DNA of 33,353 nt from a virus. The position numbers were made by a program, and so were the translations under genes. Positions 3,193-22,856 of the stretch are shown piece by piece. The stretch is taken from positions 1-33,353 of IMG/VR virus record IMGVR_UViG_3300045988_174038; one strand, 5' to 3'. The notes beneath the pieces are model-generated. The model was given only the letters and a program-made list of their open reading frames with translations. It was not told the origin of the DNA and did not search any database. The stretch's first letter is position 1, and every line of letters starts with the position of its first letter.

Positions 3193-3371
3193 GTCAAGAA
3201 GTAGCGATAAGGGACGACCGAACAACGGTACGTTCCTATTGCGCTATTCTCCCCTCTTTTGCGCAGTCGCTATGCTTGGCTGACCTTCCTAATGGGCGGT
3301 TTGCGGAGTTCCGTTGAAAAATTCCGCACCTTTACAAATACAGCCCCCCCCCCGTGGGGAGAGGTGATAAT
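3193..3371 (+). promoter_or_regulatory. Structured ~180-nt 5' leader of the packaging/structural operon
   Basis: No convincing ORF. There is a long imperfect hairpin at 3200-3248 (AGTAGCGATAAGGGACGACCG / CGGTACGTTCCTATTGCGCTATT). A second hairpin pairs TGCGGA 3302-3307 with TCCGCA 3323-3328. C10 lies at 3344-3353. UUCUCCCC (3247-3254) is complementary to the SD GGGGAGAG (3356-3363). Confidence 0.5.
3344..3353 (+). repeat. C10 homopolymer in the P2 leader, 2 nt upstream of the SD
   Basis: Counted directly: cag-CCCCCCCCCC-gtggggagagg. Confidence 0.95.
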
Positions 3372-3944
3372 ATGGAACGTAGGCAAAACGATTGGTCGGA
3401 TGTCGAGAAAGATGACGGCAAGAGCAGTGGCAATATTGGGTTGCCATTTGGACTTTGTGAGAAATACGGCATAAAGCTACCCGAAAACGCAACACCCCGT
3501 GTAGCGTGGGATATGTTGAAAGAAAAGCGTGGTATAGAGCCGCCGTGGACGGACGATGGCGCAAAACAGTGGACGGACGGTAAACCCACCGTGCAACAAA
3601 AAGAGCCGCCACAAACGAAACAAACGGCTTACGACGTAATCGAAAATAAAGAGGGACGATACAAAATACACGGCGAGCTAATAACGGCAAAACCGTACAG
3701 TCTTATTGAAAGTTGGATAAGTGTATCGAAACGTGGTTACGGCTATTATTTTGGCATTGATGTCGGCGGAAAAAAATATTTTGTTTCAATTGACTCCAAA
3801 ACGGCAAATGACCGACGTTGGGTTGAGCCGTCGATATTAGGCTATAAAAATATGAAAGTTAGCGCAAACGGATATATATACGTCGACACGAAAGGGTATG
3901 CTAATTTTGTAATAAAAGATTTGAATAATTTTTCAAAAATCTAA
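3372..3944 (+). CDS. Hypothetical protein, 190 aa (first gene of the P2 operon)
   Basis: ATG 3372 lies 7 nt after GGGGAGAGGTG. It is the internal start of track ORF 3354-3944. No family recognised. Confidence 0.75.
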   Translation: MERRQNDWSDVEKDDGKSSGNIGLPFGLCEKYGIKLPENATPRVAWDMLKEKRGIEPPWTDDGAKQWTDGKPTVQQKEPPQTKQTAYDVIENKEGRYKIHGELITAKPYSLIESWISVSKRGYGYYFGIDVGGKKYFVSIDSKTANDRRWVEPSILGYKNMKVSANGYIYVDTKGYANFVIKDLNNFSKI

Positions 3945-3965
3945 AAATAAAAAGTGGGGGAAAAT

Positions 3966-4538
3966 ATGCAAGTTAAAATGCCGACGGCTGAAATGGTTGA
4001 CATTGCGCTATTAAAGCCGTACAAAAAGAACACAAAGCGACACAATCAAACGCAAATAGACAACGTTGCGGAAAGTATCCGCAAATTCGGGTTCGTGCAG
4101 CCGTTTGTTATCGACAAAAACAATGAAGTTGTAATCGGGCATTGTCGGCTGTTGGCGGCGCAAAAACTCGGCATAACGGAATTGCCGTGCGTTCGGGTAG
4201 ATTATCTGACGGCGGCTCAAGTCAAGGCATTGCGTATTTTGGACAACAAGCTCAACGAGAGCGAGTGGGACTTGGACTTTTTGAACGAGGAATTGCCCGA
4301 AATCGATTTGGCAGGGTTTGACGTAGACTTCCCGAACGATATTAGCGGAGTTATGGATACTCTATTAGAGGACGGTTTTTCGCTTGACAAAGACCTAAGG
4401 GGCGGCGATGACGGTACGTTTGAAATCTCGCTTGCAATACCAAATGAATACGATGAACAAGTACACGAGTTCATAAGAAAGAGTGGTAAAGACCCATTGG
4501 TGGCGTGCGTTTTGGAGGCTTGTAAAAATGGCGATTGA
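3966..4538 (+). CDS. ParB-like N-terminal (ParB/Srx nuclease-type) domain protein
   Basis: The segment ..IALLKPYKKNTKRHNQTQIDNVAESIRKFGFVQPFVIDKNNEVVIGHCRLLAAQKLG.. matches the ParB N-terminal domain pattern found in phage ParB-like proteins. Confidence 0.8.
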   Translation: MQVKMPTAEMVDIALLKPYKKNTKRHNQTQIDNVAESIRKFGFVQPFVIDKNNEVVIGHCRLLAAQKLGITELPCVRVDYLTAAQVKALRILDNKLNESEWDLDFLNEELPEIDLAGFDVDFPNDISGVMDTLLEDGFSLDKDLRGGDDGTFEISLAIPNEYDEQVHEFIRKSGKDPLVACVLEACKNGD

Positions 4539-4764
4539 TTGCGGTAGTCAAATTATTTTGTGCGACTTGCCGATACGCTACGATACGTACACAGGTTGCT
4601 CACACGCTTGCGCTTATTGCTTTGTAAAAAAGAAAAGGGATATATCACAAATTGCGGTTGACGCAAGTATCGATACACTTAAAAAGTTCATAAAGGGCGA
4701 AAGGACACAACAGACACGCTGGTGCGATTGGAATATACCTCTTCACTGGGGGGGGGGCAAGTGA
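4528..4764 (+). CDS. Radical SAM (SplB/COG1533-like) protein, N-terminal fragment ending just after the G10 tract
   Basis: ATG 4528. A CxxxCxxC cluster (CSHACAYC) follows ..YDTYTGCSHACAYCF... The ORF ends ..IPLHWGGGK*, one codon after the G10 tract. Confidence 0.8.
   Translation: MAIDCGSQIILCDLPIRYDTYTGCSHACAYCFVKKKRDISQIAVDASIDTLKKFIKGERTQQTRWCDWNIPLHWGGGK
4748..4757 (+). repeat. G10 homopolymer inside the radical SAM gene
   Basis: Counted directly: cact-GGGGGGGGGG-caagtga. Confidence 0.95.
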
Positions 4765-4810
4765 CCCGTTTCAACCGTTAGAAAAGAAAGCGAGAGCCTC
4801 ATATAGGGCG

Positions 4811-5548
4811 TTGCAAATATTCGCTGAAAGTAAATATCCTTTTGTCGTATCAACGAAAGGTAAGCTAATAGCCGATGATGAGTATTTAGCATTGCTTGAT
4901 AAATGCAACTGCGTAGTTCAAATATCGGCGGCTTGCGGTGAGTACGATAAGCTTGAAAAAGGTGCGCCAACATTCGATGAACGAGTTGAAATAATGAGAA
5001 AGGTCGCTCCGCATTGCAAGCGGCTAATCGTCCGTATTCAGCCCTATGTTGTAGAATGTCACAACAGTATTATGATGCAAAGCCTACAAAGGTTTAAGGA
5101 CGCTGGTGTGTACGGTGTAACTGTTGAGGGAATGAAATTCCAAAGAGCAGTCAAGGGCATGGAAAAATGCGCTGGCGATGTCGTGTATCCGATTGCGATA
5201 CTTAGGTCGAGGTTTTCCGAAATCAAAGAAGAGTGCCACCGTTTAGGTTTGGCGTTTTTCTGCGCCGAGAATAGACTACGCTCAATGGGTGATGACCTAT
5301 GTTGTTGTGGAATCGCGGGTCTTGACGGTTTTACAACAAATAAATTCAATTACAATCATATATTCAATGGTGATTTTGAAAAACCCACCGAGAATATGAA
5401 ACAAAAAGGCACAGCACAATTATTTTCGGCACTATTCCAAAATGCAGGAATTGCGGCGGTACTCCGTAATCGTTCGTTCGTAGAAGCGATGTTGAGCAAT
5501 GATACACGCCGTTGCGCCAGCAAAGTCTTTGGGAGAGTGCGTAAATGA
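4811..5548 (+). CDS. Radical SAM protein, C-terminal part in the +1 frame (frame is open and protein-like from the tract at about 4758)
   Basis: The +1 frame reads SDPFQPLEKKARASYRALQIFAESKYPFVVSTKGKLIADD... immediately after the tract. This is the expected continuation of SplB-like radical SAM proteins. Only a TTG (4811) is available as a separate start. Confidence 0.75.
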   Translation: MQIFAESKYPFVVSTKGKLIADDEYLALLDKCNCVVQISAACGEYDKLEKGAPTFDERVEIMRKVAPHCKRLIVRIQPYVVECHNSIMMQSLQRFKDAGVYGVTVEGMKFQRAVKGMEKCAGDVVYPIAILRSRFSEIKEECHRLGLAFFCAENRLRSMGDDLCCCGIAGLDGFTTNKFNYNHIFNGDFEKPTENMKQKGTAQLFSALFQNAGIAAVLRNRSFVEAMLSNDTRRCASKVFGRVRK

Positions 5549-5745
5549 GTGAAATAAGACGAACAATATCCCTATTGAAACTCTACCGTTCGCAACTAAC
5601 TTCACAGCAGTTCCGCACTTTATGCGGACAAGCGAAGAATGGCGACACGGCAGGAGCGTTAAAAGGGTTAGTAAAATTAACAAGGGGAGTGAGTGAAAAT
5701 GCCGAGAAAACCGAGTGGGATGCCGAATGGGCGACCGCCATGTGA
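5545..5745 (+). CDS. Hypothetical protein, 66 aa
   Basis: ATG 5545 follows GGGAGAG and forms an ATGA overlap with the radical SAM stop. The 3' end overlaps the small terminase start by 47 nt. Confidence 0.5.
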   Translation: MSEIRRTISLLKLYRSQLTSQQFRTLCGQAKNGDTAGALKGLVKLTRGVSENAEKTEWDAEWATAM

Positions 5746-6097
5746 CGGGCATACTCCAAAGGAAAAGGCACGGTTCAAACAGCAGTTCGAAACTTTGTGT
5801 TTCTACCAATGCACCGAGGAAGAAATATGTGGGATACTAGACTGTAATCACGAAACGTTGGGAAGATGGTGTAAAGAAATCTATGGATATGGTTTTTCGC
5901 AGATTTACAAGGTAAAACGCCAAGGTGGCAAAGTTTCGTTGCGCAGACAGCAGTTTGAGATAGCGAAAACGAACGCTACAATGTCTATTTGGTTGGGCAA
6001 ACAATACCTCGGACAAACAGACACGCCTGTTGCGGTGGAGCATTCGGCGTTGGATAAGTTGTGCGACACGATAAGTGCGGCTATTAAAGAAGAATGA
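5699..6097 (+). CDS. terS: Terminase small subunit (HTH-type)
   Basis: ATG 5699 follows GGGGAG. The gene lies immediately upstream of, and overlaps, the large terminase. It has an HTH-like ..EEEICGILDCNHETLGRWCK.. and a C-terminal ..MSIWLGKQYLGQTD.. motif common in small terminases. Confidence 0.65.
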   Translation: MPRKPSGMPNGRPPCDGHTPKEKARFKQQFETLCFYQCTEEEICGILDCNHETLGRWCKEIYGYGFSQIYKVKRQGGKVSLRRQQFEIAKTNATMSIWLGKQYLGQTDTPVAVEHSALDKLCDTISAAIKEE

Positions 6098-7419
6098 ATT
6101 TTACGGGTTTAACGGCGAAACAGAAAGATTATTTGCGCAACGGACATCGGCGTTGGAATATACTCACAGGCGCGACAAGAAGTGGCAAGACGGTAGGTAC
6201 GTTCTTTATGTTGCCACTGCGTATCAAGGAGCATTACAACGACCGAATACTATTTATCGGGAAAACGCTAAACACGATTGACCGCAACATCTTTGACCCA
6301 TTGAGGGAACTGTACGGTTATGACAACATCGGAAAGATAGTCGGCAATCGAGAGATAACGATGTTCGGCAAGAAGTGCTACGTAGTTGGCGCAAATGACG
6401 ACCGTGCTATTACGAAGATACAAGGTGTCGGCATCGGTTACGCATATGGCGACGAGCTAACGACGTGGACGGAAAACTTTTTCCAAATGTTGAAAAGCCG
6501 TCTCGACTTGCCGAACAGCAAATTCGACGGAACGTGCAACCCCGAAAGTCCGAGTCACTTTATCAAGAAACACCTCGACAACAAAGAGTTGGATATTTAT
6601 CAAAGTCATTTTACAATTTACGACAACCCGTTTTTGTCGCCCGAGTTTGTGCGGAATTTGGAGAACGAATACCGCAACACAATTTACTTTGACAAATGGA
6701 TATTGGGCAAGTGGGTAGCTAACGAGGGACTTGTATATCCGCTATTTAGGCGTGAGCGTCACTTTATGACGCCTGCGGAGTTTTCGGCGAAGTTCGGGCG
6801 GTTGCTTATTAAGTACGTGATTTGGGGCGGAGACGGTGCGACTACAAACGACAGTACGGCGATAATACCGCTAGCTATTCTCGAAAACGGAATAGGCGTA
6901 ACGTTGGAGCCGTTCTACCACAACCCACAAACAAACGGTCCGTTGTCAAATGCGCAGTTGATGCCGTACATTGAAGAATACCTTGCCGAAATGGAAGACA
7001 AGTACCACTTCGATAGTAACGGCGTGTTGCACTATATGCCTGTTGACTGTGCGGCGGCAGACCTCGTGTTGACGTTGAGTTACAATCTAGGCGAGAAGTA
7101 CAACGCCACAGCTTACACGAAAAAGAACATACAGTTGACAACGGATGTGGTGAATAACGCATTCGGACGTAACGCCCTATACATTCTAAATTACGGCGGT
7201 TACTACAACTATATTCGACATAGATTTGAACGAGTAGAACATCCGCTAGTGATTGACCTTGAAAGTATGGTTTGGGACAAGCACAACAAAGGGTACGACG
7301 ATAGCGTGCCGAACGATTGCGCCGATGCGTTTCGTTATGCCGTGAACACGTACTACGCAAACCCCGACAGCTTGTGGGAAACACCAAATGCGGAAGAATA
7401 CTACAAGATAGGAGATTGA
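6094..7419 (+). CDS. terL: Terminase large subunit (PBSX/Terminase_3-like)
   Basis: 441 aa. Walker A GATRSGKT lies near the N-terminus. Size and position (terS upstream, portal downstream) fit. Confidence 0.9.
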   Translation: MNFTGLTAKQKDYLRNGHRRWNILTGATRSGKTVGTFFMLPLRIKEHYNDRILFIGKTLNTIDRNIFDPLRELYGYDNIGKIVGNREITMFGKKCYVVGANDDRAITKIQGVGIGYAYGDELTTWTENFFQMLKSRLDLPNSKFDGTCNPESPSHFIKKHLDNKELDIYQSHFTIYDNPFLSPEFVRNLENEYRNTIYFDKWILGKWVANEGLVYPLFRRERHFMTPAEFSAKFGRLLIKYVIWGGDGATTNDSTAIIPLAILENGIGVTLEPFYHNPQTNGPLSNAQLMPYIEEYLAEMEDKYHFDSNGVLHYMPVDCAAADLVLTLSYNLGEKYNATAYTKKNIQLTTDVVNNAFGRNALYILNYGGYYNYIRHRFERVEHPLVIDLESMVWDKHNKGYDDSVPNDCADAFRYAVNTYYANPDSLWETPNAEEYYKIGD

Positions 7420-7422
7420 GCG

Positions 7423-9039
7423 ATGGCTGATTTTCAAGACGTAAATGTCGACGGACTTGCGCCATTTCAAAACGGAGCAGCTTTTAACACGTATTGGACG
7501 TACAATCCGAGTACGAAGCAGGCGTTTTGGGCGCAGTTGTCAAGCCGATATACATACTTTGGGATGCGGTACTTGCAACATTGGTTGTATTGGTACGACG
7601 GTTGGGTGCCGTATTTCCACAATTCAAACAATGGAATATTCAGCACCAAGCTTGCGCAAAGCCTTGTAAACCGTATTTCGGATAAAGTCTATGGCGGAAA
7701 GCTGATGTTCAAAAACGCAGGTGCGGAACAGTGCAAACACGAGCCTAACGAAGCGTTGCGCACCGTGAGCAAGTGGGCGGAACACAACTTTTGTGAAGCT
7801 TTTCATCGGGCGATACTATACGCAGGTGCAGGCGGTACGGCACTGATAAAGGCAAACCGTGACAAGCGAGGACTGTGGACGGAAGCGTTGCGAGTGGATA
7901 GTTTTATCCCCACCGTAGATTTTAGGGGAAACGTTATTCGTGTAGAGTGTTTCCTAACACAATACGCCGACTTGCAACAAAACGAGAACGGCAAGAAAGC
8001 CGAGAATTATTATCTCGTAGAAGAACGGTATTTCGGCGACATCGAAACGGAACACGTTGTTTTGCACAACAGACCGTTGGTGCGCTATTCAATCAAGAAA
8101 GCGAGCGGGGTGGTTGGAACAGGTGGCGATGTAACAAGCGTGAGTACCGAAACTGTGCTGTTTGGGCGTTTGCCGAAACAAGTGCGTAGAGCATTGTTGA
8201 AAAATTACAATGCGCTGATATTCGATGTTCCGCAGTTGCTACCGTTTCACGATTGGCTGGGTGTAGAACTTGTCAAGTGGACAACGAACGTGAGCGACTT
8301 GCCGATGTTGCCTTTTGGTGAAAGTTTGCTTGCACCGATAATTTCGCAGTTGATGGCGTACGACTACTATTTCAGTGCGTTTGCGACCGATATGTACACG
8401 GGGCGTGCCAAAGTGCTTATGCCAAGCAATATGATTGACCCCGTAAAGGCGAAAGAAACGCAGAATTACAACTCGAATTTCGACAGCTTTTTGTACAAGA
8501 GATATCCGAGCCGAAACCCCGAGAGCGAAAAGCCGATACCGTTGCAGTTTGATTTGCGCGCCACCGATTGGAAAACAATTCGTGACACGATACTCGAAAA
8601 CATTGCCGTCAGTTTGGGCGTTAATACATCAACGATTGCAGGCTTTTTGGGCGACAACAACGCAAGAACGGCAAGAGAAATTTCGACCGAAGAAAACGAA
8701 ACCGCAGGTTACATCAACAACAAGCGCAACATTTTGGGAATGTCGGCAAACCGATACTTAAAACACATAACCGAGTATTTGGGATATGCCGATACCGTAG
8801 ATGTGCGTTGGAGTCGTGCAGGGTTGACGAATATGCAAAGCCTTGCCGAGATACTCAACATCGGTTTGCAGTCGGGGTTCATAAGCAAGCGCAAAGCGGT
8901 TGAAATGTTCAACCTTGACGACGACGTAATGCAAGTAGAAGAAGAATACAACGCCATACGAGCGGACGATGCGGTTCGGGAAAGCAACGAGTACGCAGGG
9001 TTCGGGGCGTTTGGCGGTGACGAGAGGTTGCCTAAATGA
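7423..9039 (+). CDS. Portal protein
   Basis: 538 aa, directly after terL and before the Mu-F-like head protein. The call rests on synteny and size; no diagnostic motif was read. Confidence 0.75.
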   Translation: MADFQDVNVDGLAPFQNGAAFNTYWTYNPSTKQAFWAQLSSRYTYFGMRYLQHWLYWYDGWVPYFHNSNNGIFSTKLAQSLVNRISDKVYGGKLMFKNAGAEQCKHEPNEALRTVSKWAEHNFCEAFHRAILYAGAGGTALIKANRDKRGLWTEALRVDSFIPTVDFRGNVIRVECFLTQYADLQQNENGKKAENYYLVEERYFGDIETEHVVLHNRPLVRYSIKKASGVVGTGGDVTSVSTETVLFGRLPKQVRRALLKNYNALIFDVPQLLPFHDWLGVELVKWTTNVSDLPMLPFGESLLAPIISQLMAYDYYFSAFATDMYTGRAKVLMPSNMIDPVKAKETQNYNSNFDSFLYKRYPSRNPESEKPIPLQFDLRATDWKTIRDTILENIAVSLGVNTSTIAGFLGDNNARTAREISTEENETAGYINNKRNILGMSANRYLKHITEYLGYADTVDVRWSRAGLTNMQSLAEILNIGLQSGFISKRKAVEMFNLDDDVMQVEEEYNAIRADDAVRESNEYAGFGAFGGDERLPK

Positions 9040-10073
9040 AACGACAAGCGAGCAGTCGGTTATCTGCCGAAGCGCAAGCTGTAATGGACGGACAAACGGC
9101 TGTTAAGCAAATCGTCAAGGACTTGTACTTGCGTGGGTTTTCGTGGGCTAAAATTGAAACGGCGGTGCGAAAAGAAATAGCGGTAACGCAAAGTGAGATT
9201 GACATCGAGTATCTCAAAGGCGAAACCGCTAAAAGCCTTATTGCATTAGCGTGGCGAGTTTACAACGATATGAAATCGTCGGCGAGTTTCGGCGATTTGG
9301 CGGTACTTTGGGCGGTGGTTGGGTTGCGGTCGAAGAATTTACCGAGCGCACAACAAGAAGCCGCAGAAGAGCTAATAGAGCGCGTCACGTGGCAAATGCC
9401 AAAGGGAACGCAAATGACACAGCGCATCTACCACTATTGGAAAGATGTTAAGGCGACCGTAGCTAAGCTTGCGGACGAACGAGCCTTAGACGAGAGCGAC
9501 AGTGGCGAAAGCAAAATATCTTTGCGGGCGAAAGCTGAAATTATTGTCCGTGAAGAGTTCCACAAGAAAGAAATGGAGCGTATGCGTGCGAAAACACGGT
9601 TGGTAATAATTAGCACTCACAGCGATTGTAGCGACCGTTGCGCACCGTACCAAGGGCGTGTTTACAGCCTTGACGGTACGAGCGGAACAACGCCCGACGG
9701 ACGTAGTTTTGTACCGATTGAAGAAGCGACCGAAAACCCGAGGGATAGATACGTCACCAAAGCTGGCGTAGTGTATCAGAATGGGTTGTTCGGGTTCAAT
9801 TGTAGGCATATCATGATAGAATACGCAGACGGACTAACTCCGCCGACGGAAAGCGAAGCCGTGCGACAACGTGAAGTTGCAATCGACAAGAAGCAACGTG
9901 AGTACGAGCGAGAAATAATACGAGCAAGGGAAAAGGCTGTTGCTTACAAAGGAATTGACCGCAAAGAATATACGAAGTGGAAAATTCGTGCGAGCAAACT
10001 TTTGGAAGAATACGCCGATTATAGTCACAAACACGGCAGGTCGTACTACACGAGCCGTATTCGAGTTTTATAG
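9036..10073 (+). CDS. Minor head / head-morphogenesis protein (Phage Mu F / SPP1 gp7-like)
   Basis: Position after the portal. The C-terminal region ..HSDCSDRCAPYQGRVYSLDG...GLFGFNCRH.. resembles the conserved Mu-F-like core. Confidence 0.7.
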   Translation: MKRQASSRLSAEAQAVMDGQTAVKQIVKDLYLRGFSWAKIETAVRKEIAVTQSEIDIEYLKGETAKSLIALAWRVYNDMKSSASFGDLAVLWAVVGLRSKNLPSAQQEAAEELIERVTWQMPKGTQMTQRIYHYWKDVKATVAKLADERALDESDSGESKISLRAKAEIIVREEFHKKEMERMRAKTRLVIISTHSDCSDRCAPYQGRVYSLDGTSGTTPDGRSFVPIEEATENPRDRYVTKAGVVYQNGLFGFNCRHIMIEYADGLTPPTESEAVRQREVAIDKKQREYEREIIRAREKAVAYKGIDRKEYTKWKIRASKLLEEYADYSHKHGRSYYTSRIRVL

Positions 10074-10243
10074 CACCGTCCGAAAGGGCGTTGTATATCG
10101 ACAGCACAGTCGTTAAAAGCAAAGGGGAAAGCCGCAAATTAGCCCTATTGACCGAAAGCGTGAGGCGTGAGTAACTCAAAACGTGGGCGTTTGGCGAGGG
10201 AGTAACCTTTACCTAGGTAAATATAAAAGGAGCGTAAACAGAA

Positions 10244-10774
10244 ATGGCAATTTTCGGAAAGAAAATCACGACGGCAGAAATGCTGTTAAAGGCGTTGAAC
10301 GACTTGTCGGACGAGGAAAGAACGAAGTTTGAACAGAGCCTCAAAGACCGTGTCGACGAGAGCGTAGGCGCACAAGAAGAAGCGGACAACGAACAAGACA
10401 CGCAAAGTGCCGTAGACCGTGTAGACGAAAGCGTAGGAGCGGAGAACGCTAACGCTGACGAAAATGCGGACGGTGTGGTGAAAGAAAGTACGGACGATAC
10501 CAACGTTGAGGAAACCGAGGATACGGACGTACCGACAAACGAAGAAGTTGCCACAGCTGAGGACGAAAAGTACAAGGCTTTGCTTGCCCGAATTGACGCA
10601 CAAGACGCACAAATCGCAAATCTAATGACGGCGTTTGGCGAAATTGGAGAGTTGAAAGACAAAAGCGAAAATTTCGGCGCAACGGAAGTGGGCGATAATG
10701 TGGATACGAGCGACGAACAACGTGACGACGACCGTATTATGGCAAACTTCTACGGCAGTTCCTACCGTAAATAA
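10244..10774 (+). CDS. Scaffolding protein (acidic, repeat-containing)
   Basis: 176 aa, very D/E-rich, directly upstream of the major capsid gene. It contains an internal duplicated DRVDESVGA. Confidence 0.6.
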   Translation: MAIFGKKITTAEMLLKALNDLSDEERTKFEQSLKDRVDESVGAQEEADNEQDTQSAVDRVDESVGAENANADENADGVVKESTDDTNVEETEDTDVPTNEEVATAEDEKYKALLARIDAQDAQIANLMTAFGEIGELKDKSENFGATEVGDNVDTSDEQRDDDRIMANFYGSSYRK

Positions 10775-10810
10775 GGGACAAAACAAAATTTTAATTAAAG
10801 GAGCCTTATT

Positions 10811-12115: not shown

Positions 12116-12123
12116 ACCAGAAA

Positions 12124-12197: not shown

Positions 12198-12560
12198 ATG
12201 GAATTGTTGGTTACTTACGAGGATGTAAAAAACGAATTGGGTGTTGACCTTACAGTGGAATTGGGGCAACCTCGGGATGTCAACTTGTGGTTGAAGAGAC
12301 AAGAACGAGTAGTGTTGAACTTCATTGCGGCGCACAAAATAAGCGGATATGTAGCCGTGCAAGAAATGTTGAAAGACGAAAAAGCAACGGCAATAATAAA
12401 GCAAGCGATAGTCGAACACATCCACTATTTGGCGGAAAACAAATTTGTCGAGCCCGACCTATTGGCGCAAAAGGACGGCGACCAACTAGTGCCGACAATT
12501 GCAATGCAAGCGCAGTGGACGTTGGAAAACAGCGGTTTGTTGTATTCGGGGCGGATATGA
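12198..12560 (+). CDS. Head-tail connector/adaptor protein (gp6-like, by position)
   Basis: 120 aa, the first gene after the capsid gene. The N-terminus is MELLVTYEDVKNELGVD.., typical of small head-tail connector proteins. Confidence 0.55.
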   Translation: MELLVTYEDVKNELGVDLTVELGQPRDVNLWLKRQERVVLNFIAAHKISGYVAVQEMLKDEKATAIIKQAIVEHIHYLAENKFVEPDLLAQKDGDQLVPTIAMQAQWTLENSGLLYSGRI

Positions 12561-12925
12561 GCAAAAGAAGATACACAGCGGCGGCGTTTGCAAGACTTTG
12601 GGTGACGGTCGCTAAAAGAGAAACGTCACGGCGCAGTTACCACCAAGTGCGTGACGGGCAGTTTTCGTATCGGCTTTTTGTGTCGGGCAAAGGCAATATT
12701 CCGTTTGACACGGGCAAATTGCAAGACAGTATTTTCCTTGCCGAAAGGGGAAATAGGTCGGCAACAATACGAATACCTGTGCATTATGCTGTTTACTTGC
12801 AATATTGCACTCGGGTAGGCACATCGTGGGCACCTAATCAACACAAAAATTGGTTGCAAAAATTCACGAGGGGCGAATACTACCGCACCGTTAGCCGTAG
12901 GTACGAGGGGGTAAGGATAGAATGA
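12557..12925 (+). CDS. HK97 gp10-like head-tail joining protein
   Basis: ATG 12557 (ATGA overlap). The motif ..IPFDTGKLQDSIFL.. resembles the conserved (V/I)P.DTG.L..S motif of the HK97 gp10 family. Confidence 0.55.
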   Translation: MSKRRYTAAAFARLWVTVAKRETSRRSYHQVRDGQFSYRLFVSGKGNIPFDTGKLQDSIFLAERGNRSATIRIPVHYAVYLQYCTRVGTSWAPNQHKNWLQKFTRGEYYRTVSRRYEGVRIE

Positions 12926-14112: not shown

Positions 14113-14120
14113 GGTGAGAT

Positions 14121-15307: not shown

Positions 15308-15310
15308 GGA

Positions 15311-17164
15311 ATGAAAAATACATTGACATATCCGAGCTATTCGGGGTGGATAACGGTCCGGACGGACGATATACAACTGACGACCAATAATGCGATGTTG
15401 ATAATGCCAAAGCCTATCGTGCAAATACAAAAGGTGCTGTTGGATATTATCGGTATCGGCACGGTTGGTATAACATTCAAAGACACGTCGGTAGCGAGCA
15501 CTCGGAAACAAATAAATGAAATAACTACGGCGGCTGGCGATACAAGCACGACGTTGTCCGTTTTAGACATCTCACACTACATCGTTGAACAAGACTTATA
15601 CAAGACGTTGTCAACACAAGGCGCATTTGACCCCGCAACGGACGACATCTCGAAAAACAACACGAGCTACTACAAGCTTTACGACAAAAACATCAAGATT
15701 TGCACCGAAAAGGCAAACATTTTTGCGGATGCGCCGATTTACAATTCGATAGTATATGCGTTGAACGACTTGTTGAAAACGCAATCGCTGTATTGGAGTG
15801 GACAGGAAATCAGCGCAGTATCGGGTTTTATCGAAACCACCTCGCTACTACGGTGGCAATGGCGTGTTGTATACGAGCCGTTGGGCGAAAACGCAAAACT
15901 AAACGTCCCAAAAACAAACGCCGAGGAAATTCCTTTCGCTATTCCGTACAATCAACAACAACAAATAGCGTCGTCGGTGGGATTGGGGCGCAATATGCAA
16001 AGCGTTGCAAACCGCACAGGAACGGAGCAAAAGCAAGTTGTGCGTTACATTACCAAATTGTCACAAATGAGGCGTGTAGGCGCAGTGGCGACGTTAAACG
16101 GCGAGATATGGCGTTTGACGGAAGTTGCAGGAACATTTACGCCGATAAGGGCGAGAATTACAGAAACGTGGACAAAGGGTTGGAGTATGCGTTCGGAATA
16201 CGTCGGTATTAACCGTGAGTTCCGTTCGTGGAATATCCCGAGCCAAATCACCGAGCGCAATTTGCTGTATCAAGACTATTGTTTAATTACACGCAAAACG
16301 GCGTTGAGTTTCGCCGATAACGCAAAAGTCGGCACGTGGGCAAAGCATTTGCTTGTCAAGTTTATCGACAGCACAAAGGCAATTACGCCGACAAGGACGG
16401 AACAAACAGCGATGTGGATATACCGTGAGGGCGTGACCGACCAAGGCGTAATATTGACGGCTTCGGCGTTTGGTTTCGGCAATTCACTCGTGTTTTCGGG
16501 GCGCACGCAAGACAACCTAAGCGCAGGAATAAAGCGTGTACAACTCAACAGTGGTGATAATATTTTGCAACAGAACATCGACACCTACTATTGCAAAGCG
16601 GACGGTACGTTGGAAAAGGCGAAAATTTGGTTTTCTTCCGACATTGAAAGTATGAACGGCGACACGTACCCCGAAGCAATAGGCGCAATAAATACGCCGT
16701 ATTCTGACGGCGCACTATTCGGCACCGCACCGTATTGGTTTGACATTGACAAAGACCCTGCCGAGCAAATAAACTTCACATATCAGTTGCATATGTTGAC
16801 CGACGACCCGAATTTGATTATCGGCACGACGTGGGCAGGGCGCAACCCACTTGTACATCAGTACGACAGTGCTCCGGCACGCAAATATTGGAAAATAACG
16901 AAACGTTTGCCGCAAGGTGCGCAAGTAATGACGAGTGCGTTTGGCGAAACGTCGTCGTCGGCGATATGCACTGTGACGGAGCAATCGGTGAATACGAGAG
17001 TGTATGAAAACATCGCTTTTGTCGTTCCGAGCGGAAGTTTGGGTGTTTGCGTGACGGACGAGAACAACAATATACTTGTGGCGTGGCAAGGTGGCGCAAG
17101 CGCAACGTTTACGACCTATTACACGCACGACTACGGCGCAATCAAAAAAGCCGTTAAAAGCTAA
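15311..17164 (+). CDS. Large tail or baseplate structural protein, 617 aa
   Basis: Track ORF, upstream of the fibre genes. No motif recognised. Confidence 0.65.
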   Translation: MKNTLTYPSYSGWITVRTDDIQLTTNNAMLIMPKPIVQIQKVLLDIIGIGTVGITFKDTSVASTRKQINEITTAAGDTSTTLSVLDISHYIVEQDLYKTLSTQGAFDPATDDISKNNTSYYKLYDKNIKICTEKANIFADAPIYNSIVYALNDLLKTQSLYWSGQEISAVSGFIETTSLLRWQWRVVYEPLGENAKLNVPKTNAEEIPFAIPYNQQQQIASSVGLGRNMQSVANRTGTEQKQVVRYITKLSQMRRVGAVATLNGEIWRLTEVAGTFTPIRARITETWTKGWSMRSEYVGINREFRSWNIPSQITERNLLYQDYCLITRKTALSFADNAKVGTWAKHLLVKFIDSTKAITPTRTEQTAMWIYREGVTDQGVILTASAFGFGNSLVFSGRTQDNLSAGIKRVQLNSGDNILQQNIDTYYCKADGTLEKAKIWFSSDIESMNGDTYPEAIGAINTPYSDGALFGTAPYWFDIDKDPAEQINFTYQLHMLTDDPNLIIGTTWAGRNPLVHQYDSAPARKYWKITKRLPQGAQVMTSAFGETSSSAICTVTEQSVNTRVYENIAFVVPSGSLGVCVTDENNNILVAWQGGASATFTTYYTHDYGAIKKAVKS

Positions 17165-17178
17165 ATGGGAGGCTTAAA

Positions 17179-19944
17179 ATGCAATCAAACAGAATTGTGG
17201 TAATGCTTGCCGCCGACGGCGTGAACGGACTTGACATCAGCTACGGCAAGAACATCAACACAATGTATCTCAACTCGCACCTAAACAGCGAGTTTGTGGT
17301 GCGCCCTGCATTTTTGTTGGGGGCGTCGGAAACGATGTGGGTAACGTTCAGCAAGGGCGAAACATCCACACGTCCGCTACTGTTGGCACAACGTCAAACA
17401 AACGACAGCAACAATAGCCGTCAAGTTGTGGACGGTACGGAAAGTACAATTGAAAAGATACCCAACACGGGATACGAGTACTTTATCGATATGCCCGATG
17501 TCGTGTTGCAAAACGTCGGCGAGTGGAGTTTTTCGATAACGATTACCGAGTTGCCTGTGGACGTGGAATACAAAGGACAAGTGAACGCTACGAGCGATTT
17601 GCCGTCGAGCGGAAACGCCGTCGGCGATACCTATTGGGTCGGCGGTTCTGTAAACTCGTACTACTATTGGAACGGCTCGGCGTGGGCGGTGCTTAACATC
17701 GTCGCCGTGTCTACATCCGATGTCGGTACAATTACGGTAAATCGGAGCGTGGGCGGACAAATCGGCGGATATGCCACCGACCTTGACATCCAAGTGCTGT
17801 ACAATTTCGTGTTGCGAGTGCTGAATAGATTGTCTGACTATTTGCCGAAAATTGTTGACGGCTATTGGTGGGTTTGGAACAGCGACAGCAAAGCGTATGT
17901 CAACTCGGGCGAAGTGGCGACATCGTTGATAACGTTGCGTGCGATAACAGGACTTACAAAAGTACCGACCATAAACGACACCATTACGAGTAGAGCGGCA
18001 ACATTTAACCGTGTACCGCAAATAGGCGAAACCTACGTGTCCCTTGCAAGTACCTCTAATGCACTCGGTGGCGATACGTATATTTGCCTAATGAAGTACA
18101 CATCCGAAAACACGTCGACCTATATGTATGTTGGCAACACTCGTGGCGCAAAGGGCGAAAAAGGCGATACGGGCGCACAAGGTCAAAAGGGCGATACAGG
18201 CGCAACGGGCGTGGGCATTGCGAACGTAAAGCAAGAAGTCGTGACAGGCGGCACAAAGGTTACAATCACGTTGACGAACGGCACAAGTAGTTCATTTATT
18301 GTGTATAACGGCACTGCGGATAACATCACCAACTTGGAGTTTCCGCACGGTGACGCAGTAGTCACGTATGATAATGTAGACGGACTGCACATACACGGCA
18401 ATTGCCGAATTACGCTTAACGGCGTTAACGTTGATGTACCTATGGATGTCGAGATACCGCAAACGGCGGGCGACGGCTTGACCGAGGACGCAACGGACGA
18501 CGCAAAAGGTGCGGTATTGAAAGTCGACGAAACAGTAATACGCACTAACAAGGCAAATCAAATCATCAACGGAAACGTTACAATCGGCGGCAACGTGACA
18601 GTCAACGGCACGGTCACGAGCGTGAGTGCCGAAAATTTGAAAGTAAAGAACAAACTAATAGTAGTTGCCGAGGGTAACACGGTCACGCTGACAAGTCCCG
18701 CAGGTTTGCTCGCTCCGAAGTACGACGGCACGAACCACGGCGCATTGGTATTTGACGGTACGGGTACGGCGTATGTCGGTGACGTGGTGTTGGACAGCAA
18801 CGGCGATATTGATGTGTCGAAGTCCGACTTGCAACCGCTCGTAACACGCGGCACGCTCGCTGACGGCAAGTTGGTGAAATGGAACGCCGCAAAATTGCGT
18901 CTGGAAGATACAGGTATAGCCGCCGACCAAGTGGCGACGAAAGCCGACCTCGGCGCAACGAGTAACTTCATTTACAAGTTAAACTATGAAAGCGCAACAA
19001 TACCGACAATCGGGCAAGTATTGACGTTGACAAATGCGAATTTTAGCCGCACTCCCGTTGTGGGCGACGTTTTTGCGCTTATGGAAGTTGTAAACGTCAA
19101 CGATACTTACTACAACAATATGGAAGTATTGACCGTTGGCGAAACGACTTGCACGGCGAAAATAATGTCATTCACGGACATCACGAGTTGCAAGGTGACA
19201 AAGGTTACTACGGCTACCACCACGAAGCAAGCCTATGTAAAGAACGCCGACGGCACGCAAGGAATGGTAGACATCAATAATAATGCGACTGCTCAAAGTA
19301 TTGTCTTACGTGATAATGCTGGTAGAATATACGTCACAGCTGGCGCAGAAGAGGGACAGGCTGTAAACGTCAAACAAATGAGCAGTGCTATTGCGACGGC
19401 AATGGAAGTAGGCACAAGTGGGCTTGAACGCACGGACAACAAGGTAGGTTCGATTACGGGCGAGGGCGATGATGTACAATATCCGTCCACCAAAGCCGTG
19501 GTAGATTACGTTAAAGCCAACGCACCGACGGCATACCACGTTGATTTGAGCGGTGATAGCGGTACAATCACTACTGACCAATACAATGCTCTAAAAGCTG
19601 ACAATGATAGCTACATTTTGCATACGGTAGGTGTTGCTGTTATGAGGCTTGCAAGGGCAGTAAAAGTTGAAGCACAAAGTGGTAGTTTGCAATATCAAAA
19701 GTTTATCGGTGGTACTGCAAGAACTATTAAAATAGAACCGTCGGGTGCTTGGACGAAGACTGAGACCACATATCAGTCAACAAGTAAACTTACAACAACC
19801 TTGTCGTCGAGTTCCACCAATACTCAATATCCAAGTGCAAAAGCAACGTACGATGCCGACCAAGCAACACTGACAGCGGCAAAGAGTTATGCGGACACAG
19901 CAATCACAAACGCAATCACAACGGCGTTGAACACCCCTGTGTAA
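17179..19944 (+). CDS. Tail fibre protein with a collagen-like segment, 921 aa
   Basis: G-X-Y repeats GAKGEKGDTGAQGQKGDTGATG. Recurrent ..QYPS.KA..DY.. motifs (DDVQYPSTKAVVDYVKAN, TNTQYPSAKATYDAD) are common in phage fibre proteins. Confidence 0.8.
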   Translation: MQSNRIVVMLAADGVNGLDISYGKNINTMYLNSHLNSEFVVRPAFLLGASETMWVTFSKGETSTRPLLLAQRQTNDSNNSRQVVDGTESTIEKIPNTGYEYFIDMPDVVLQNVGEWSFSITITELPVDVEYKGQVNATSDLPSSGNAVGDTYWVGGSVNSYYYWNGSAWAVLNIVAVSTSDVGTITVNRSVGGQIGGYATDLDIQVLYNFVLRVLNRLSDYLPKIVDGYWWVWNSDSKAYVNSGEVATSLITLRAITGLTKVPTINDTITSRAATFNRVPQIGETYVSLASTSNALGGDTYICLMKYTSENTSTYMYVGNTRGAKGEKGDTGAQGQKGDTGATGVGIANVKQEVVTGGTKVTITLTNGTSSSFIVYNGTADNITNLEFPHGDAVVTYDNVDGLHIHGNCRITLNGVNVDVPMDVEIPQTAGDGLTEDATDDAKGAVLKVDETVIRTNKANQIINGNVTIGGNVTVNGTVTSVSAENLKVKNKLIVVAEGNTVTLTSPAGLLAPKYDGTNHGALVFDGTGTAYVGDVVLDSNGDIDVSKSDLQPLVTRGTLADGKLVKWNAAKLRLEDTGIAADQVATKADLGATSNFIYKLNYESATIPTIGQVLTLTNANFSRTPVVGDVFALMEVVNVNDTYYNNMEVLTVGETTCTAKIMSFTDITSCKVTKVTTATTTKQAYVKNADGTQGMVDINNNATAQSIVLRDNAGRIYVTAGAEEGQAVNVKQMSSAIATAMEVGTSGLERTDNKVGSITGEGDDVQYPSTKAVVDYVKANAPTAYHVDLSGDSGTITTDQYNALKADNDSYILHTVGVAVMRLARAVKVEAQSGSLQYQKFIGGTARTIKIEPSGAWTKTETTYQSTSKLTTTLSSSSTNTQYPSAKATYDADQATLTAAKSYADTAITNAITTALNTPV
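18145..18216 (+). repeat. Collagen-like G-X-Y repeat coding segment
   Basis: Seven consecutive GXY triplets read in frame (ggc gca aag ggc gaa aaa ggc gat acg ...). Confidence 0.9.
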
Positions 19945-19956
19945 AGGAGATAGATT

Positions 19957-20508
19957 ATGGCGAAAAACAATAATTTAACGGACTTCCTAACCGATGTAGC
20001 CGACGCTATTCGGGAAAAGGACGGCACGACAGGGACGATTAACCCACAAGATTTCAGCGACAAAATCAAGGCGATACAAACAGGCTTGGACACGTCTGAC
20101 GGCAACATCGAGCCTACAACAGTGTTGAAAGGCTACAAAGGCTACGCAAAAGGTGTGGCTGTTGATGGTGCGATTGAAACGTATGACGGGACGGTGGAGG
20201 ATGTTGGGTTTACCGTAACAATGAATTTCAGCGGTCCAACAGTGACCAATATGGGTTTTTACAGTTTGGACGCAGGTAGTACTTGGATAGATTTATTTGC
20301 CACCGAGCAAACGCAATTAGTATTGAACAATGTCAAACAAATAATGTTCAAGGCACAAGGCGACTATTCCCATTATATATCTATAAGTGGGGATGGTTTC
20401 AGCAGTTTGTATATTAACGGTTCTGTCGGACCAAGTACTACGGAGCAAACACCGAATATTACTCTTACGCAAAATATGGTTGTTGACATTGGTACAGGCA
20501 GTGATTAA
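19957..20508 (+). CDS. Tail fibre/RBP-associated protein, 183 aa
   Basis: The N-terminus MAKNNNLTDFLTDVADAIREKDGTTGTINPQDFSDKIKAI is a recurrent N-terminal motif of fibre proteins in Gram-positive phages (from my recollection, not searched). Confidence 0.6.
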   Translation: MAKNNNLTDFLTDVADAIREKDGTTGTINPQDFSDKIKAIQTGLDTSDGNIEPTTVLKGYKGYAKGVAVDGAIETYDGTVEDVGFTVTMNFSGPTVTNMGFYSLDAGSTWIDLFATEQTQLVLNNVKQIMFKAQGDYSHYISISGDGFSSLYINGSVGPSTTEQTPNITLTQNMVVDIGTGSD

Positions 20509-20581
20509 AAAGAAATGATACACTTTAATTACCCAATCCCCGTCCGCAGGTGGCAAGGCGGTCACTCTTTAAGGAGTAGAT

Positions 20582-21760
20582 ATGAACGAAATAAAAATCT
20601 TATCCGACAGGATAATCATAGATGGTCACGCTGATACACGAGAGCAATGCGAAACTGCAACAATGTTGGCAAATCTATTGTCAGCACAAGGCAGTGGTTT
20701 TAATTGCGTTGAGTATCGAAGTGGCTATGCCGAGTTTAAGAAAAGCGATGTTGTCAAGTTGGCTGATAGTGAGTTGAAGTTTGTTAGTGGTGAACCTGTT
20801 AGCTATAAAACAATATATGTAAATGGTAATAGGGTCGAAATTTCAGACACTATGGGCAATACTTGGCAAGAGCTTGAAACCTATAATAGCCAATATAGAA
20901 TTGAAGGTAATACCGTAGTTTGGAGGAGTGATGACACAATTTTGCAATACAACGGTGTTGATGTATTACCAACCGATACCATTGTAGCGAACAGACAATA
21001 CACAACTCGCTCGTCATTCGACGGCAAAATCAACATCACAAAATCAGCAGGCGTTGTCCTCAAAACGCAAGGTAAGTATTGCGACAAAGACATAACTGTT
21101 GTACCCGTACTTGAAGAAAAGAGCGTAACCCCGACTGAAAGCGCACAAGAGATTGTACCGAGTGACGGAAACTGCGGTATTAGCAAAGTAACCGTCGGAG
21201 CGGTACAAACTGAAACAAAAACGATAACTCCGACTACAAATCAACAGACGTTCACTCCTACAAGTGGCAAGTACTTCAAGCAAGTCATTTGTCAAGCAAT
21301 ACAAGCCTACCAAGGCACGGCAACACCCGCACAAGGTGAACAGACAATCACCCCGACAAGCGGTAAGTTTTTCAGTTCGTTCAAAGTAGGTGCAATACCG
21401 AGTGACTATGTAATACCGAGTGGTACATTGCAAATCACGGCTAACGGCGCAAAGGACGTTACAAACTACAAGAATGTCAACGTAAATGTAGAGCCGAATT
21501 TGGAGCAAAAGACTGTGACAATCACCGAAAATGGTACGACCGAAGTTACCCCTACAACGGGCAAGGACGGTATGAGCAAAGTCACTGTAACGACAAATGT
21601 CCCGACGGCAAGTGCTGTTGAAGAGGTTGCGACAGCAAGTGCAATGAACGCATTGTTGGTAGAAGCTAATGTTGGCAAGTACTACAAGTTTACAGGCACG
21701 ACCGATAGCAACTACACCAACGGCGACCTTTACCTTGTTGAGGGGGGGGGCAGTGAGTAG
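20582..21760 (+). CDS. Fibre/receptor-binding protein A, upstream ORF (392 aa) ending just after the G9 tract
   Basis: Shares an N-terminal block with RBP B (GNTVVWRSDDTILQYNGVDVLPTDTIVANRQYTTRS). It has tandem ~30-aa T/P/Q-rich repeats (..TPT..Q...P.SGK.F..V.V.AI..). It ends ..GDLYLVEGGGSE*. Confidence 0.8.
   Translation: MNEIKILSDRIIIDGHADTREQCETATMLANLLSAQGSGFNCVEYRSGYAEFKKSDVVKLADSELKFVSGEPVSYKTIYVNGNRVEISDTMGNTWQELETYNSQYRIEGNTVVWRSDDTILQYNGVDVLPTDTIVANRQYTTRSSFDGKINITKSAGVVLKTQGKYCDKDITVVPVLEEKSVTPTESAQEIVPSDGNCGISKVTVGAVQTETKTITPTTNQQTFTPTSGKYFKQVICQAIQAYQGTATPAQGEQTITPTSGKFFSSFKVGAIPSDYVIPSGTLQITANGAKDVTNYKNVNVNVEPNLEQKTVTITENGTTEVTPTTGKDGMSKVTVTTNVPTASAVEEVATASAMNALLVEANVGKYYKFTGTTDSNYTNGDLYLVEGGGSE
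21742..21750 (+). repeat. G9 homopolymer at the domain junction of RBP A
   Basis: Counted directly: ttga-GGGGGGGGG-cagtgagtag. Confidence 0.95.
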
Positions 21761-22115
21761 TGGATATACGGTAAGTTATATTTTGAGCGGTGGAATGGGC
21801 GGTGCGTTAATTCCTATGTTTGTTTACAATGGTAAGAAATACGGCTACAATTCCACTAAATATCCTAACGGAGATAATAAATTTTATAAAGACGATGTAG
21901 TTGTATCTGCCGAAGAATATAGTGGTTCATATGCTATAATTGGCGAATTAAACATTCCAAGTGTACCAACAACAATTACGTGGGGATACAATGACACTTT
22001 GCAATATGCCAATAAAACAGGAGATATAACTATAACAAATGGAACATCGGGGAAACTTGACGGTACTATAATTGTTAATGGAAATGGTAGTTTCGAGATA
22101 AAAGGTACCGACTAA
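21753..22115 (+). CDS. RBP A distal domain ORF in the +1 frame (about 120 aa; frame open from 21669)
   Basis: The +1 frame reads ..GGAVSSGYTVSYILSGGMGGALIPMFVYNGKKYGYN...FEIKGTD*. A GTG at 21753 is the only nearby start. Deleting one G fuses it to 20582-21760 (510 aa). Confidence 0.6.
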   Translation: MSSGYTVSYILSGGMGGALIPMFVYNGKKYGYNSTKYPNGDNKFYKDDVVVSAEEYSGSYAIIGELNIPSVPTTITWGYNDTLQYANKTGDITITNGTSGKLDGTIIVNGNGSFEIKGTD

Positions 22116-22166
22116 TACACAGCATAAACCTTATCGGGTAGGCGGTCAAACCCGTTAGGAGAAACT

Positions 22167-22856
22167 ATGTGGAAACATAAAAACTTTATAAATTTGCAGT
22201 TGTGTGCTGGACCTATACCGTTCCCAATAGTAGTAAACGGTACAGATGTTTATATCCAAAGGCTTAGTGATAGTGGGGAAACTGGCGAGGAAACTTGGAG
22301 TTATAATGCAAGTATAAATACGGACATTTATTCAATTTCGGGCAATACTGTTGTTTGGAGTGACGGAACTATTTTGCAATATAATAGCATTGATGTTTTA
22401 CCTACTGACAATATTATTGTTGATGGTGAATACACAACTCGTACTGCCTCAACCCTCAAATTCAAACACCTCACTGACGCAGGCACTATCGGCAGTGGGA
22501 CGGTTAAGTTTAGACACTACTCGCAACAGGGGCTTAGTACGGGCGAAACGTGGGTGTTGAATAGTACTATAACAGCTCCAAGTAGTAGTATTGACAAAAA
22601 TATCGATTTTCTTTGTGTAGGTACGTCACAAAACTTCATACGTATACTGATAGAAAGCGAAGGTAGAGGTGTACATCTGGAATATTTTGCACAAGGTGAT
22701 AGTTCCACAGCAGGTACTGTTGTATCGACTGGCGGCACAGCAGTCGCTACTGAATATCGCACGCTTACGTTCGATAGTCCTGTAACCGACACGGCGTTGT
22801 TGACTTGGCTACAAGCTAACGGAACAAAGCAAGGTGGGGGGGGGGCAAGTAATTAA
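22167..22856 (+). CDS. Fibre/receptor-binding protein B, upstream ORF (229 aa) ending just after the G10 tract
   Basis: The paralogous block GNTVVWSDGTILQYNSIDVLPTDNIIVDGEYTTRT. It ends ..LLTWLQANGTKQGGGGASN*. Confidence 0.75.
   Translation: MWKHKNFINLQLCAGPIPFPIVVNGTDVYIQRLSDSGETGEETWSYNASINTDIYSISGNTVVWSDGTILQYNSIDVLPTDNIIVDGEYTTRTASTLKFKHLTDAGTIGSGTVKFRHYSQQGLSTGETWVLNSTITAPSSSIDKNIDFLCVGTSQNFIRILIESEGRGVHLEYFAQGDSSTAGTVVSTGGTAVATEYRTLTFDSPVTDTALLTWLQANGTKQGGGGASN

Follow-up and report, generated by a model that had tools for sequence, protein, structure and literature searches.

Poly-G tracts of variable length at three split genes of an uncultured human-gut phage as probable contingency loci

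Hypermutable poly-G tracts have been reported in the receptor-binding genes of Campylobacter Fletchervirus phages (Sorensen 2021, via PMC10579305 and PMC12823448), where, in the accounts these two sources give, changes in tract length create phenotypically mixed progeny; on the same accounts, the principle of polyG phase-variable phage genes is already known from this group. Contingency loci of T-even and other cultured phages were described by Gomez, Barrick and Waters (2025, bioRxiv, PMC12633550), who present homopolymers within genes as sites of reversible mutation through polymerase slippage and as a means of bet-hedging; their proven case is agt, an accessory DNA-modification gene. As far as the searched literature goes, phase-variable host recognition by homopolymer slippage has been shown only in Campylobacter phages, and it was not until 2025 that contingency loci were put forward as a strategy of phages in general. 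Phage structural proteins with two isoforms (lambda G/GT, T7 10A/10B, Listeria phage PSA +1) are treated in the review PMC5009743, and poly-A slippage in tssM in PMC4256274. Here, we analyzed a 33,353-nucleotide (nt) stretch of viral DNA, the IMG/VR record IMGVR_UViG_3300045988_174038 at its full length (hereafter the window), in which three G homopolymers interrupt a radical SAM gene and two genes of the tail-fibre region. Judged by comparison with relatives, the G tracts are probably (roughly 0.7) real, hypermutable poly-G contingency loci.

The window and the Fletchervirus genomes, as far as the latter are described in the sources above, are alike in having G homopolymers in phage host-recognition genes (putative here), in that tract length shifts the reading frame, and in carrying several tracts per genome, whereas the window system is known here from sequences alone. 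They show no sequence relationship, and the window represents a different virus type (~33 kb, SPP1-type portal, human gut). Because no homology to Campylobacter phage proteins or genomes was found, the window genes are not members of the Fletchervirus gene family. Unlike the Fletchervirus tracts, those of the window encode poly-Gly linkers exactly at module boundaries and are followed by stops in each of the two other frames, so that they would switch only the distal module and not the entire protein; a radical SAM gene is affected as well. The T-even agt gene parallels the ON/OFF states of this accessory radical SAM gene; however, T-even repeats are mostly A runs of 6 to 9, of which each A+T-rich genome has dozens to hundreds (PMC12633550), whereas the window group has few G runs of 7 to 13, strongly over-represented and confined to specific junctions. 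The polyG and polyC loci of Campylobacter, Neisseria, and Haemophilus surface genes are likewise in-frame homopolymers of 7 to 8 or more that differ in phase between isolates and have nonslippery alleles in relatives. In contrast to these bacterial loci, the window tracts are virus-borne, coincide with mosaic recombination boundaries, and have an OFF state that would be a designed truncated isoform.

A direct scan of the whole window located C10 at 3344-3353, G10 at 4748-4757, G9 at 21742-21750, and G10 at 22836-22845, all on the plus strand, as are the genes described below. The sole further G/C run of at least 6 was G6 at 23699-23704, in agreement with the original prediction, made from these letters without database searches, of four tracts and no other G/C run longer than 6. 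Its estimate of about 0.2 runs by chance was fair: the expected number of G/C runs of at least 9 was 0.14 from the base composition of the window (G 25.8%, C 20.0%) and 0.05 under a first-order Markov model, and the Poisson probability of at least four was ~1e-5. A/T runs showed no excess, with two A8 runs against ~2.6 expected (a hand estimate from the scan counts). All three G tracts lie on the coding strand within Gly codons, and the upstream open reading frames (ORFs) end in HWGGGK, VEGGGSE, and KQGGGGASN, with stops one to three codons past the G run rather than at its end. The long downstream frame is +1 in all three cases and, since each carries the continuation of its gene, deletion of one G fuses all three, confirming what had been read from the letters; the predicted junction peptides include ..LYLVEGGAVSSGY.. 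and ..TKQGGGGQVIK... Of the four Gly codons, GGG is used least in the window (13% of 684), yet G homopolymers encode three of the six stretches of at least three Gly in window proteins. Three genes hence contain a slippable homopolymer (~7 nt or more) within the reading frame, as expected of contingency loci, and uninterrupted homologs were found for all three. Three tracts of random phase would all fall out of frame in the same direction with a chance of ~7%. The same net +1 phase headed the original prediction and is also a pattern for which the window was picked out; given the in-frame and +2 states at homologous tracts in relatives, the idea that it has meaning was rejected, and it is a coincidence of the window genome.

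The first of the three split genes is the radical SAM gene, whose N-terminal fragment (4528-4764; 78 amino acids, aa) contains the CxxxCxxC motif and ends in HWGGGK owing to the G10 tract, while the continuation (4757-5548) runs in the +1 frame through ..GGASDPFQPLEKK.. up to its stop. The tract sits in a conserved W-G-G-(A)-S-D-P motif for which G9 is the in-frame length. In DNA the site has the form CACT-Gn-CAAGTGACCCG, with the same 3' flank in all relatives compared (relatives are cited by locus, L, and protein, P). Tract length was 10 in the window (out of frame), 9 in L010 (Logan ERR11473944, ~96% nt identity, intact 338-aa gene), 8 in L018 (SRR29133789, out of frame, with a more diverged 5' flank, ..CCATT-G8), and 7 in L025 and L026 (two ENA assemblies carrying an identical tract, out of frame), so that only G9 among G7, G8, G9, and G10 was in frame. 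The 45-nt 5' flank was identical in L025 and L026, and differed by 1 nt in L010. In an 80%-identical relative (L019) the tract was interrupted (TGGGGAGGGACA) and the gene intact. P0001, an uninterrupted homolog of 338 aa, was 99% identical and read ..HWGGASDPFQP... A single cluster (at least 90% identity) held seven or more different intact sequences of 338 aa, of which some occurred on six to eight contigs, together with N-terminal stubs ending in HWGGK (G7), HWGGQVTRFNR (G8), and HWGGGK (G10), as predicted. Intact (ON) P0365 and truncated (OFF) P0380 plus P0366 shared 75 of 75 N-terminal and 243 of 244 C-terminal residues; P0363 (ON) matched P0379 plus P0367 (OFF) as a second such pair, and rare substitutions were common to ON and OFF sequences. 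By this comparison, the tract is a length polymorphism at very short evolutionary distance that appears centered on the in-frame length and departs from it in both directions.

The repaired protein matched PF04055 at 32.6 bits against a Pfam cut-off of 29.5 over residues 20 to 160, spanning the tract, and its cluster motif reads CSHACAYC; with both the motif and an above-threshold domain match it belongs to the Radical SAM superfamily. A likeness to SplB/PA0069/Rv2578c fell far below the cut-offs of the NCBIfam subfamily models, no sequence relative was found in PDB, a scan of IMG/VR gave no match, and the N-terminal fragment has been deposited as "DNA repair photolyase" (DAO90222.1). A gene encoding a ParB_N-domain protein lies directly 5' of the radical SAM gene (window 3966-5548 region), and this order was kept in L010, L018, L025, and L026, that is, in all loci covering the gene pair and its start. 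A PAPS-reductase-like gene occurs near the right end of the window (32093-32980). The ParB_N, radical SAM, and PAPS-reductase-like genes might form a DNA-modification module with a phase-variable radical SAM part.

The other two G tracts lie in genes that the original prediction had labeled receptor-binding proteins (RBPs), here called RBP1 and RBP2, the first and second of the tail-fibre region. The N-terminal 392 aa of RBP1 (20582-21760; P0243, DAO90281.1) end in ..NGDLYLVEGGGSE before the stop, and its C-terminal module (21750-22115; AVSSGYTVSYILSGGMGG...) follows in the +1 frame; the G9 tract forms the junction of LYLVE, the Gly linker, and the C-module, and would be in frame as G8. Likewise, the N-terminal 229 aa of RBP2 (22167-22856; P0121, DAO90279.1) end in ..WLQANGTKQGGGGASN, followed in the +1 frame by its C-terminal module (22846-23211; QVIKAGTYQFIEDINFP...TANTTKLS), and G9 would place TKQ, the Gly linker, and the C-module in frame at the G10 tract. 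Homologs with the modules fused in frame were P0245 for RBP1 (..LYLVEVGAVSSGYTVSYILSGGMGGALIPMF.., junction ..LYLVEVGAVSSGYTVSYILSGGMGG..) and P0122 and P0123 for RBP2 (..TKQGGGGQVIKAGTY.. and ..GGGGEIIKAGTYQFIEDINFPTGIDI.., respectively). The comparison of tract length and frame in relatives, proposed with the original prediction, revealed tracts that were present but of varied length and phase. With +1 denoting the correction needed in the window, RBP1 junctions were in frame with G7 (L006), G10 (L022), G11 (L023), and G12 (L020), and in phase +2 with G9 (L001 and L005, where another distal module lies downstream than in the window), G10 (L012), and G13 (L021). RBP2 junctions were in frame with G9 (L020) and G10 (L023), in phase +1 with G11 (L015 and L016), G7 (L022), and G10 (L021), and in phase +2 with G8 (L006). 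Mixed-codon, nonhomopolymer linkers, namely GAGGGTGGAGCA at the RBP1 junction of L007, GGTGGAGGTGGTGGGGGG at the RBP2 junction of L001, and that of the radical SAM gene in L019, were all in frame. The tract also marks a boundary of homology, as nucleotide similarity between the window and its relatives ended at 21747-21761, i.e., at the G9 tract, in 9 of 10 relatives, and the internal RBP2 module of the window (22529-22832) had a 94% identical copy in L020 right after an RBP1-type G12 tract. A further junction kind was found in L020 and L023, where G9 (9985-9993 in both) splits a 90-aa N-terminal module (..YTESGGGR, then stop) from a ..DKMTINVTKSAG.. body; module and body were fused in P0294 and P0306. 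With this third kind of tail-fibre-region junction, one protein can bear poly-G joints at both ends.

Across 12 loci, 23 coding tracts of G7 to G13 at four kinds of junction (radical SAM, ..LYLVE|, ..WLQANGTKQ|, and ..YTES|) were distributed over phases 0, +1, and +2 as 9, 8, and 6 (p = 0.74 against uniform). Tract length thus varies within conserved flanks between close relatives (G7 to G10 at the radical SAM site, G7 to G13 at the tail-fibre junctions), and a change of length toggles functional and truncated products, given these phases and the intact homologs of all three genes. Since the choice of these loci was partly guided by protein endings, all stored homologs were also classified without selection, giving 186 homologous junctions, ranked by similarity, in which an ORF stopping within nine residues of the linker counted as truncated. 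Truncation rose from 0% (0/46) after linkers of at most one Gly to 13% (10/75) after two Gly and 54% (35/65) after three or more (Fisher p = 1e-11), and the truncated endings (GGGQ, GGGSN, GGGGASN, GGGGGK, etc.) were those expected from the two out-of-frame readings. Individual states recurred: a G11 OFF tract was identical in the two loci read (ENA and Logan samples) with the same OFF product on 13 contigs, and the product of the in-frame G11 gene of L023 occurred on 10 contigs.

Stops were concentrated just downstream of the tracts. In the noncontinuing frames, a stop fell within 8 nt 3' of the tract in 37 of 46 cases, or in 20 of 26 when counted over 13 distinct flanks, against a background of 16% at out-of-frame positions of the same genes (p = 2e-11). 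The tail-fibre-region flanks, Gn-CAGTRA and Gn-CAAGTAA, encode Ala-Val or Gln-Val in frame, and Gln-stop in one alternative frame and Gly-Ser-x-stop in the other, so that the out-of-phase product is a clean short isoform ending at the linker. The similarity of the 3' flanks remarked upon for the window is therefore real and, at the two tail-fibre-region tracts, belongs to this family-wide stop-flanked pattern; the resemblance of the radical SAM flank stems from the conserved Ser-Asp-Pro codons (AGT GAC).

Slipped-strand contingency tracts, the first of three readings originally offered, are supported by the length variation in near-identical relatives, the occurrence of all three phases, and the length-dependent truncation. 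Under this reading, slipped-strand mispairing during phage DNA replication would gain or lose Gs and move a tract among three phases. In the tail-fibre region, the tract would encode a poly-Gly linker joining a conserved proximal part to an exchangeable distal module; the in-phase state would fuse this module on and give the long form, and in either other phase translation would end within about three codons of the linker to give the short form. At the radical SAM gene, where the tract lies within the conserved W-G-G, G9 alone would yield the enzyme (ON) and other lengths the 78-aa stub (OFF). The OFF or short consensus at all three genes is the state of one population, not a rule. We infer that switching may be fast and reversible within populations and that it may be adaptive bet-hedging. 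Several points weigh against this. The data are consensus sequences, and heterogeneity within populations and reversibility are predictions; the recurrence of one OFF consensus in many assemblies (G11) fits slow switching or selection as well as fast switching; the receptor-binding role is deduced for proteins with no Pfam or PHROG match, no significant PDB match by Foldseek, and no cultured-phage match by tblastn; and protein endings partly guided the choice of the 23 tracts at the DNA level, leaving the 186-junction protein survey as the unbiased evidence.

Judging from the window and its relatives, uncultured human-gut phages of an abundant group may commonly use this strategy, with at least 45 independent truncated junctions on two genome backbones. 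A broader proposal, which we put forward only tentatively and hold to be doubtful, is that poly-G switch-linkers are a lineage-wide design in uncultured gut phages, in which one cassette (a G run plus a CA(A)GTRA-type flank with stops in the other frames) would act as a phase-variable fuse for distal receptor-binding modules and as a common joint for module exchange even between unrelated backbones, alongside diversity-generating retroelements (DGRs); on this view, C10 would be a scar or joint left by that process. If the contingency reading is true, tail-fibre configuration and accessory-enzyme state would both be mixed within one phage population, with bearing on host-range prediction, gut phage-bacterium dynamics, and phage-therapy design. 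It also urges caution in annotation, as pairs of "split" or "hypothetical" ORFs at G runs in viral metagenome-assembled genomes (MAGs) may be one switchable gene. Relative to the searched literature, what appears to be new is the uncultured human-gut phage lineage, the placement of linkers between exchangeable modules, and the stops in both alternative frames, as well as the coexistence with a DGR in a relative, the involvement of a radical SAM gene, and the breadth of occurrence.

Programmed recoding, modeled on lambda G/GT, T7 10A/10B, dnaX, and Citrobacter tssM, is an unlikely alternative in which the tract would be out of frame by design and a set ratio of short to long product would come from one genome through slippage of RNA polymerase or frameshifting of the ribosome. 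As in such systems, one gene would give a short and a C-terminally extended protein. Runs of 9 to 13 Gs are plausibly slippery for both RNA polymerase and tRNA-Gly, and about half of the long-tract junctions were out of frame (35/65 in the protein survey, 14/23 at the DNA level), with a defined short product ensured by the immediate stops and with one OFF state recurring on 13 contigs. However, at programmed sites the shift goes one way only, on a slippery heptamer or run that is conserved, and a stimulatory structure is often present, whereas the window tracts belong to families of variable phase (0, +1, or +2 at homologous tracts, the two tracts within L021 differing from each other), and the 80 nt 3' of the tracts folded no better than shuffled sequences (z = -0.4, +0.5, and -0.8). 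We found neither a conserved direction nor a downstream RNA structure or slippery site at a hungry or stop codon, and the mixed phases and lack of stimulatory structure contradict a fixed-direction programmed shift. In addition, many relatives have constitutive fusions with nonslippery linkers, and the 78-aa stub of the radical SAM gene is an implausible second isoform. What stands of this second reading is a possible secondary contribution, as RNA-level slippage may add a leaky long form from OFF genotypes on top of the DNA variation.

It is about equally improbable that the tracts are real and unstable yet a nonadaptive hazard, the frameshifts being ordinary inactivation of dispensable modules, i.e., pseudogenes in the making. 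Consistent with this, the phase distribution was near random, all three genes are OFF in a genome nevertheless abundant enough to assemble, and many relatives (42 cases) end the RBP2-like gene at ..TKQ, with neither linker nor distal module. Mere decay is hard to reconcile with the use of the rarest Gly codon at four or more kinds of junction in many lineages and two phage backbones, with downstream modules that keep long open frames and high identity to their fused homologs, or with the enrichment of stops in both alternative frames; without selection, synonymous interruption should come quickly, as seen in L007 and L019. Short-read assemblers are without systematic homopolymer bias, and the third reading, systematic miscalls that would have added one G to true tracts of G9, G8, and G9, is very unlikely. 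In its favor, the window departures are all +1, the matching ENA contig has a coverage of only ~11x, and homopolymers in general are prone to errors. Against it, the contig names are of the kind given by short-read assemblers (SPAdes NODE_, MEGAHIT k141_), the ENA contig has the same tract lengths, identical truncated products occur in NCBI, JGI, ENA, and Logan, relatives depart both up and down (G7, G8, and G10 around G9), states are reproduced across independent samples and assemblers, and 54% truncation at long linkers against 0% at short ones far exceeds any consensus error rate.

That RBP1 and RBP2 bind receptors is plausible, and the putative role draws on the tail-fibre gene upstream, the extreme modularity, and a complete DGR at the equivalent place in a relative; as a label, "RBP" is thus reasonable from synteny but finds no family or fold to back it. 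The 921-aa product of the upstream gene (17179-19944) is tail-fibre-like, with weak PHROG tail-fibre matches and, at aa 322 to 345, a collagen-like GXY repeat; this context places the split genes in the host-recognition module. No family was found for RBP1 or RBP2 in Pfam, PHROG, or NCBIfam, and tblastn gave no match to any cultured phage. An AlphaFold (AF2) model of P0122, the full-length RBP2 homolog, had a predicted local distance difference test (pLDDT) score of 71, rising to 85 to 90 in two C-terminal domains; the model predicts confident beta domains at 130-222 and 225-342, separated by the Gly linker, and its Foldseek search of PDB returned no significant match (best E = 0.03, template modeling score 0.2 or less). 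The DGR lies in L015 (3562-5017; ENA ERZ27287454 k141_576602) beside genes with G11 and G6 tracts and consists of a reverse transcriptase (PF00078, 3974-5017), a template repeat (3738-3871), and a variable repeat (3562-3695) forming the 3' end of a 444-aa gene; the two repeats differ almost only at template adenines. DGRs (BPP-1 Mtd) and invertible segments (the Mu G segment) share the presumed purpose of varying host recognition within a lineage, but the window mechanism would be homopolymer frame switching instead of mutagenic retrohoming or site-specific inversion. An 86-nt segment ending at the RBP2 G10 tract (22775-22860), in which the G run pairs with an upstream GUCCU, folded better than shuffled sequences (z = -2.7, 3 of 200 as good); as one of six folds tested, this may be chance.

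The C10 tract (3344-3353) had been grouped with the G tracts, but it is not coding and lies in the 5' leader of an inserted ORFan, 18 nt 5' of the ATG of the ORF at 3372-3944 (190 aa) and abutting a Shine-Dalgarno-like sequence, GGGGAGAGG. The segment containing C10 and the ORFan (3334-3942) was absent from L010, in which the flanking sequences join directly after a hairpin, and in L018 the 105-aa gene and the ParB_N gene likewise had no ORF between them. C10 begins 10 nt inside the left edge of this insertion, and its only carriers were contigs identical to the window. No homolog of the ORFan was found in Pfam, PHROG, NCBIfam, or IMG/VR. Poly-C tracts in promoters or leaders phase-vary expression in Bordetella fim and Neisseria opc and porA; C10 is also a long C run just upstream of a gene, but a role as promoter spacer found no support, as no -35/-10 pair flanks it at workable spacing. 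A hairpin between C10 and the Shine-Dalgarno-like sequence was likewise unsupported, the leader RNA fold not being significant. C10 may mark a recombination joint or act as a phase tract of leader or promoter type; on present evidence it is a separate intergenic tract that cannot be grouped with the G tracts. The insertion starts just 3' of a terminator-like hairpin (GCGGAGTTCC...TTCCGC).

With ~33 kb and 46% G+C, the window is the genome of a tailed phage and encodes a ParB_N protein, a large terminase (TerL), an SPP1-type portal, and the tail-fibre-like protein. Its proteins have been deposited as "MAG TPA: ... [Caudoviricetes sp.]", with the split fragments entered separately (DAO90222.1/DAO90248.1, DAO90281.1/DAO90280.1, and DAO90279.1/DAO90278.1), and an ENA SPAdes contig (ERZ1748977 NODE_221, 11x) was identical to the window, tract lengths included. 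Searches with the window by megablast and blastn found no relatives among 50,697 phage records, and tblastn against the same collection (GenBank/INPHARED) matched only two unannotated human-fecal "Bacteriophage sp." records at 37 to 39% identity. Relatives of the tail-fibre-region genes were plentiful in ENA and Logan assemblies and few in IMG/VR. The search for a host did not identify one: the sole genome match was a 25-kb contig binned in a Bacteroidaceae MAG, with 49% capsid identity, while TerL resembled that of phages of Gram-positive hosts at below 40% identity only.

The poly-G-linked tail-fibre cassette was found on two unrelated backbones (L020 and L023 vs. L021 and L022), one of 33 to 37 kb with an SPP1-type portal and the other of 50 to 55 kb with an SU10-type portal, implying horizontal exchange of the whole host-recognition module. 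The cassette includes a pilin-like gene, an odd companion of tail-fibre genes, that lay 3' of the RBP2-like gene in every relative with a gene table examined; in the window (23225-23497) its 90-aa product matches TIGR02532, the prepilin-type N-terminal cleavage/methylation domain, at 29.5 bits (cut-off 16.3). The ParB and radical SAM pair (G7, OFF) also occurs in L025 (ENA ERZ27306441 k141_172683), which has a gene for a tyrosine integrase (3231-4226) and a different head module (HK97-type capsid, Mu F), indicating that at least part of the group is temperate and highly mosaic. The L010 contig (Logan ERR11473944_41343) starts with a G14 run (1-14), which could be an assembly break at a polymorphic G tract or a poly-G artifact of two-color chemistry. 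Elsewhere in the window, the ORFs at 12198-12560 and 12287-12925 were considered as a further frameshift and rejected, being two genes with an ATGA overlap at 12557; the 122-aa ORF at 12557-12925, uncalled in public gene tables, is an ordinary missed gene that accounts for an apparent gap of 360 nt.

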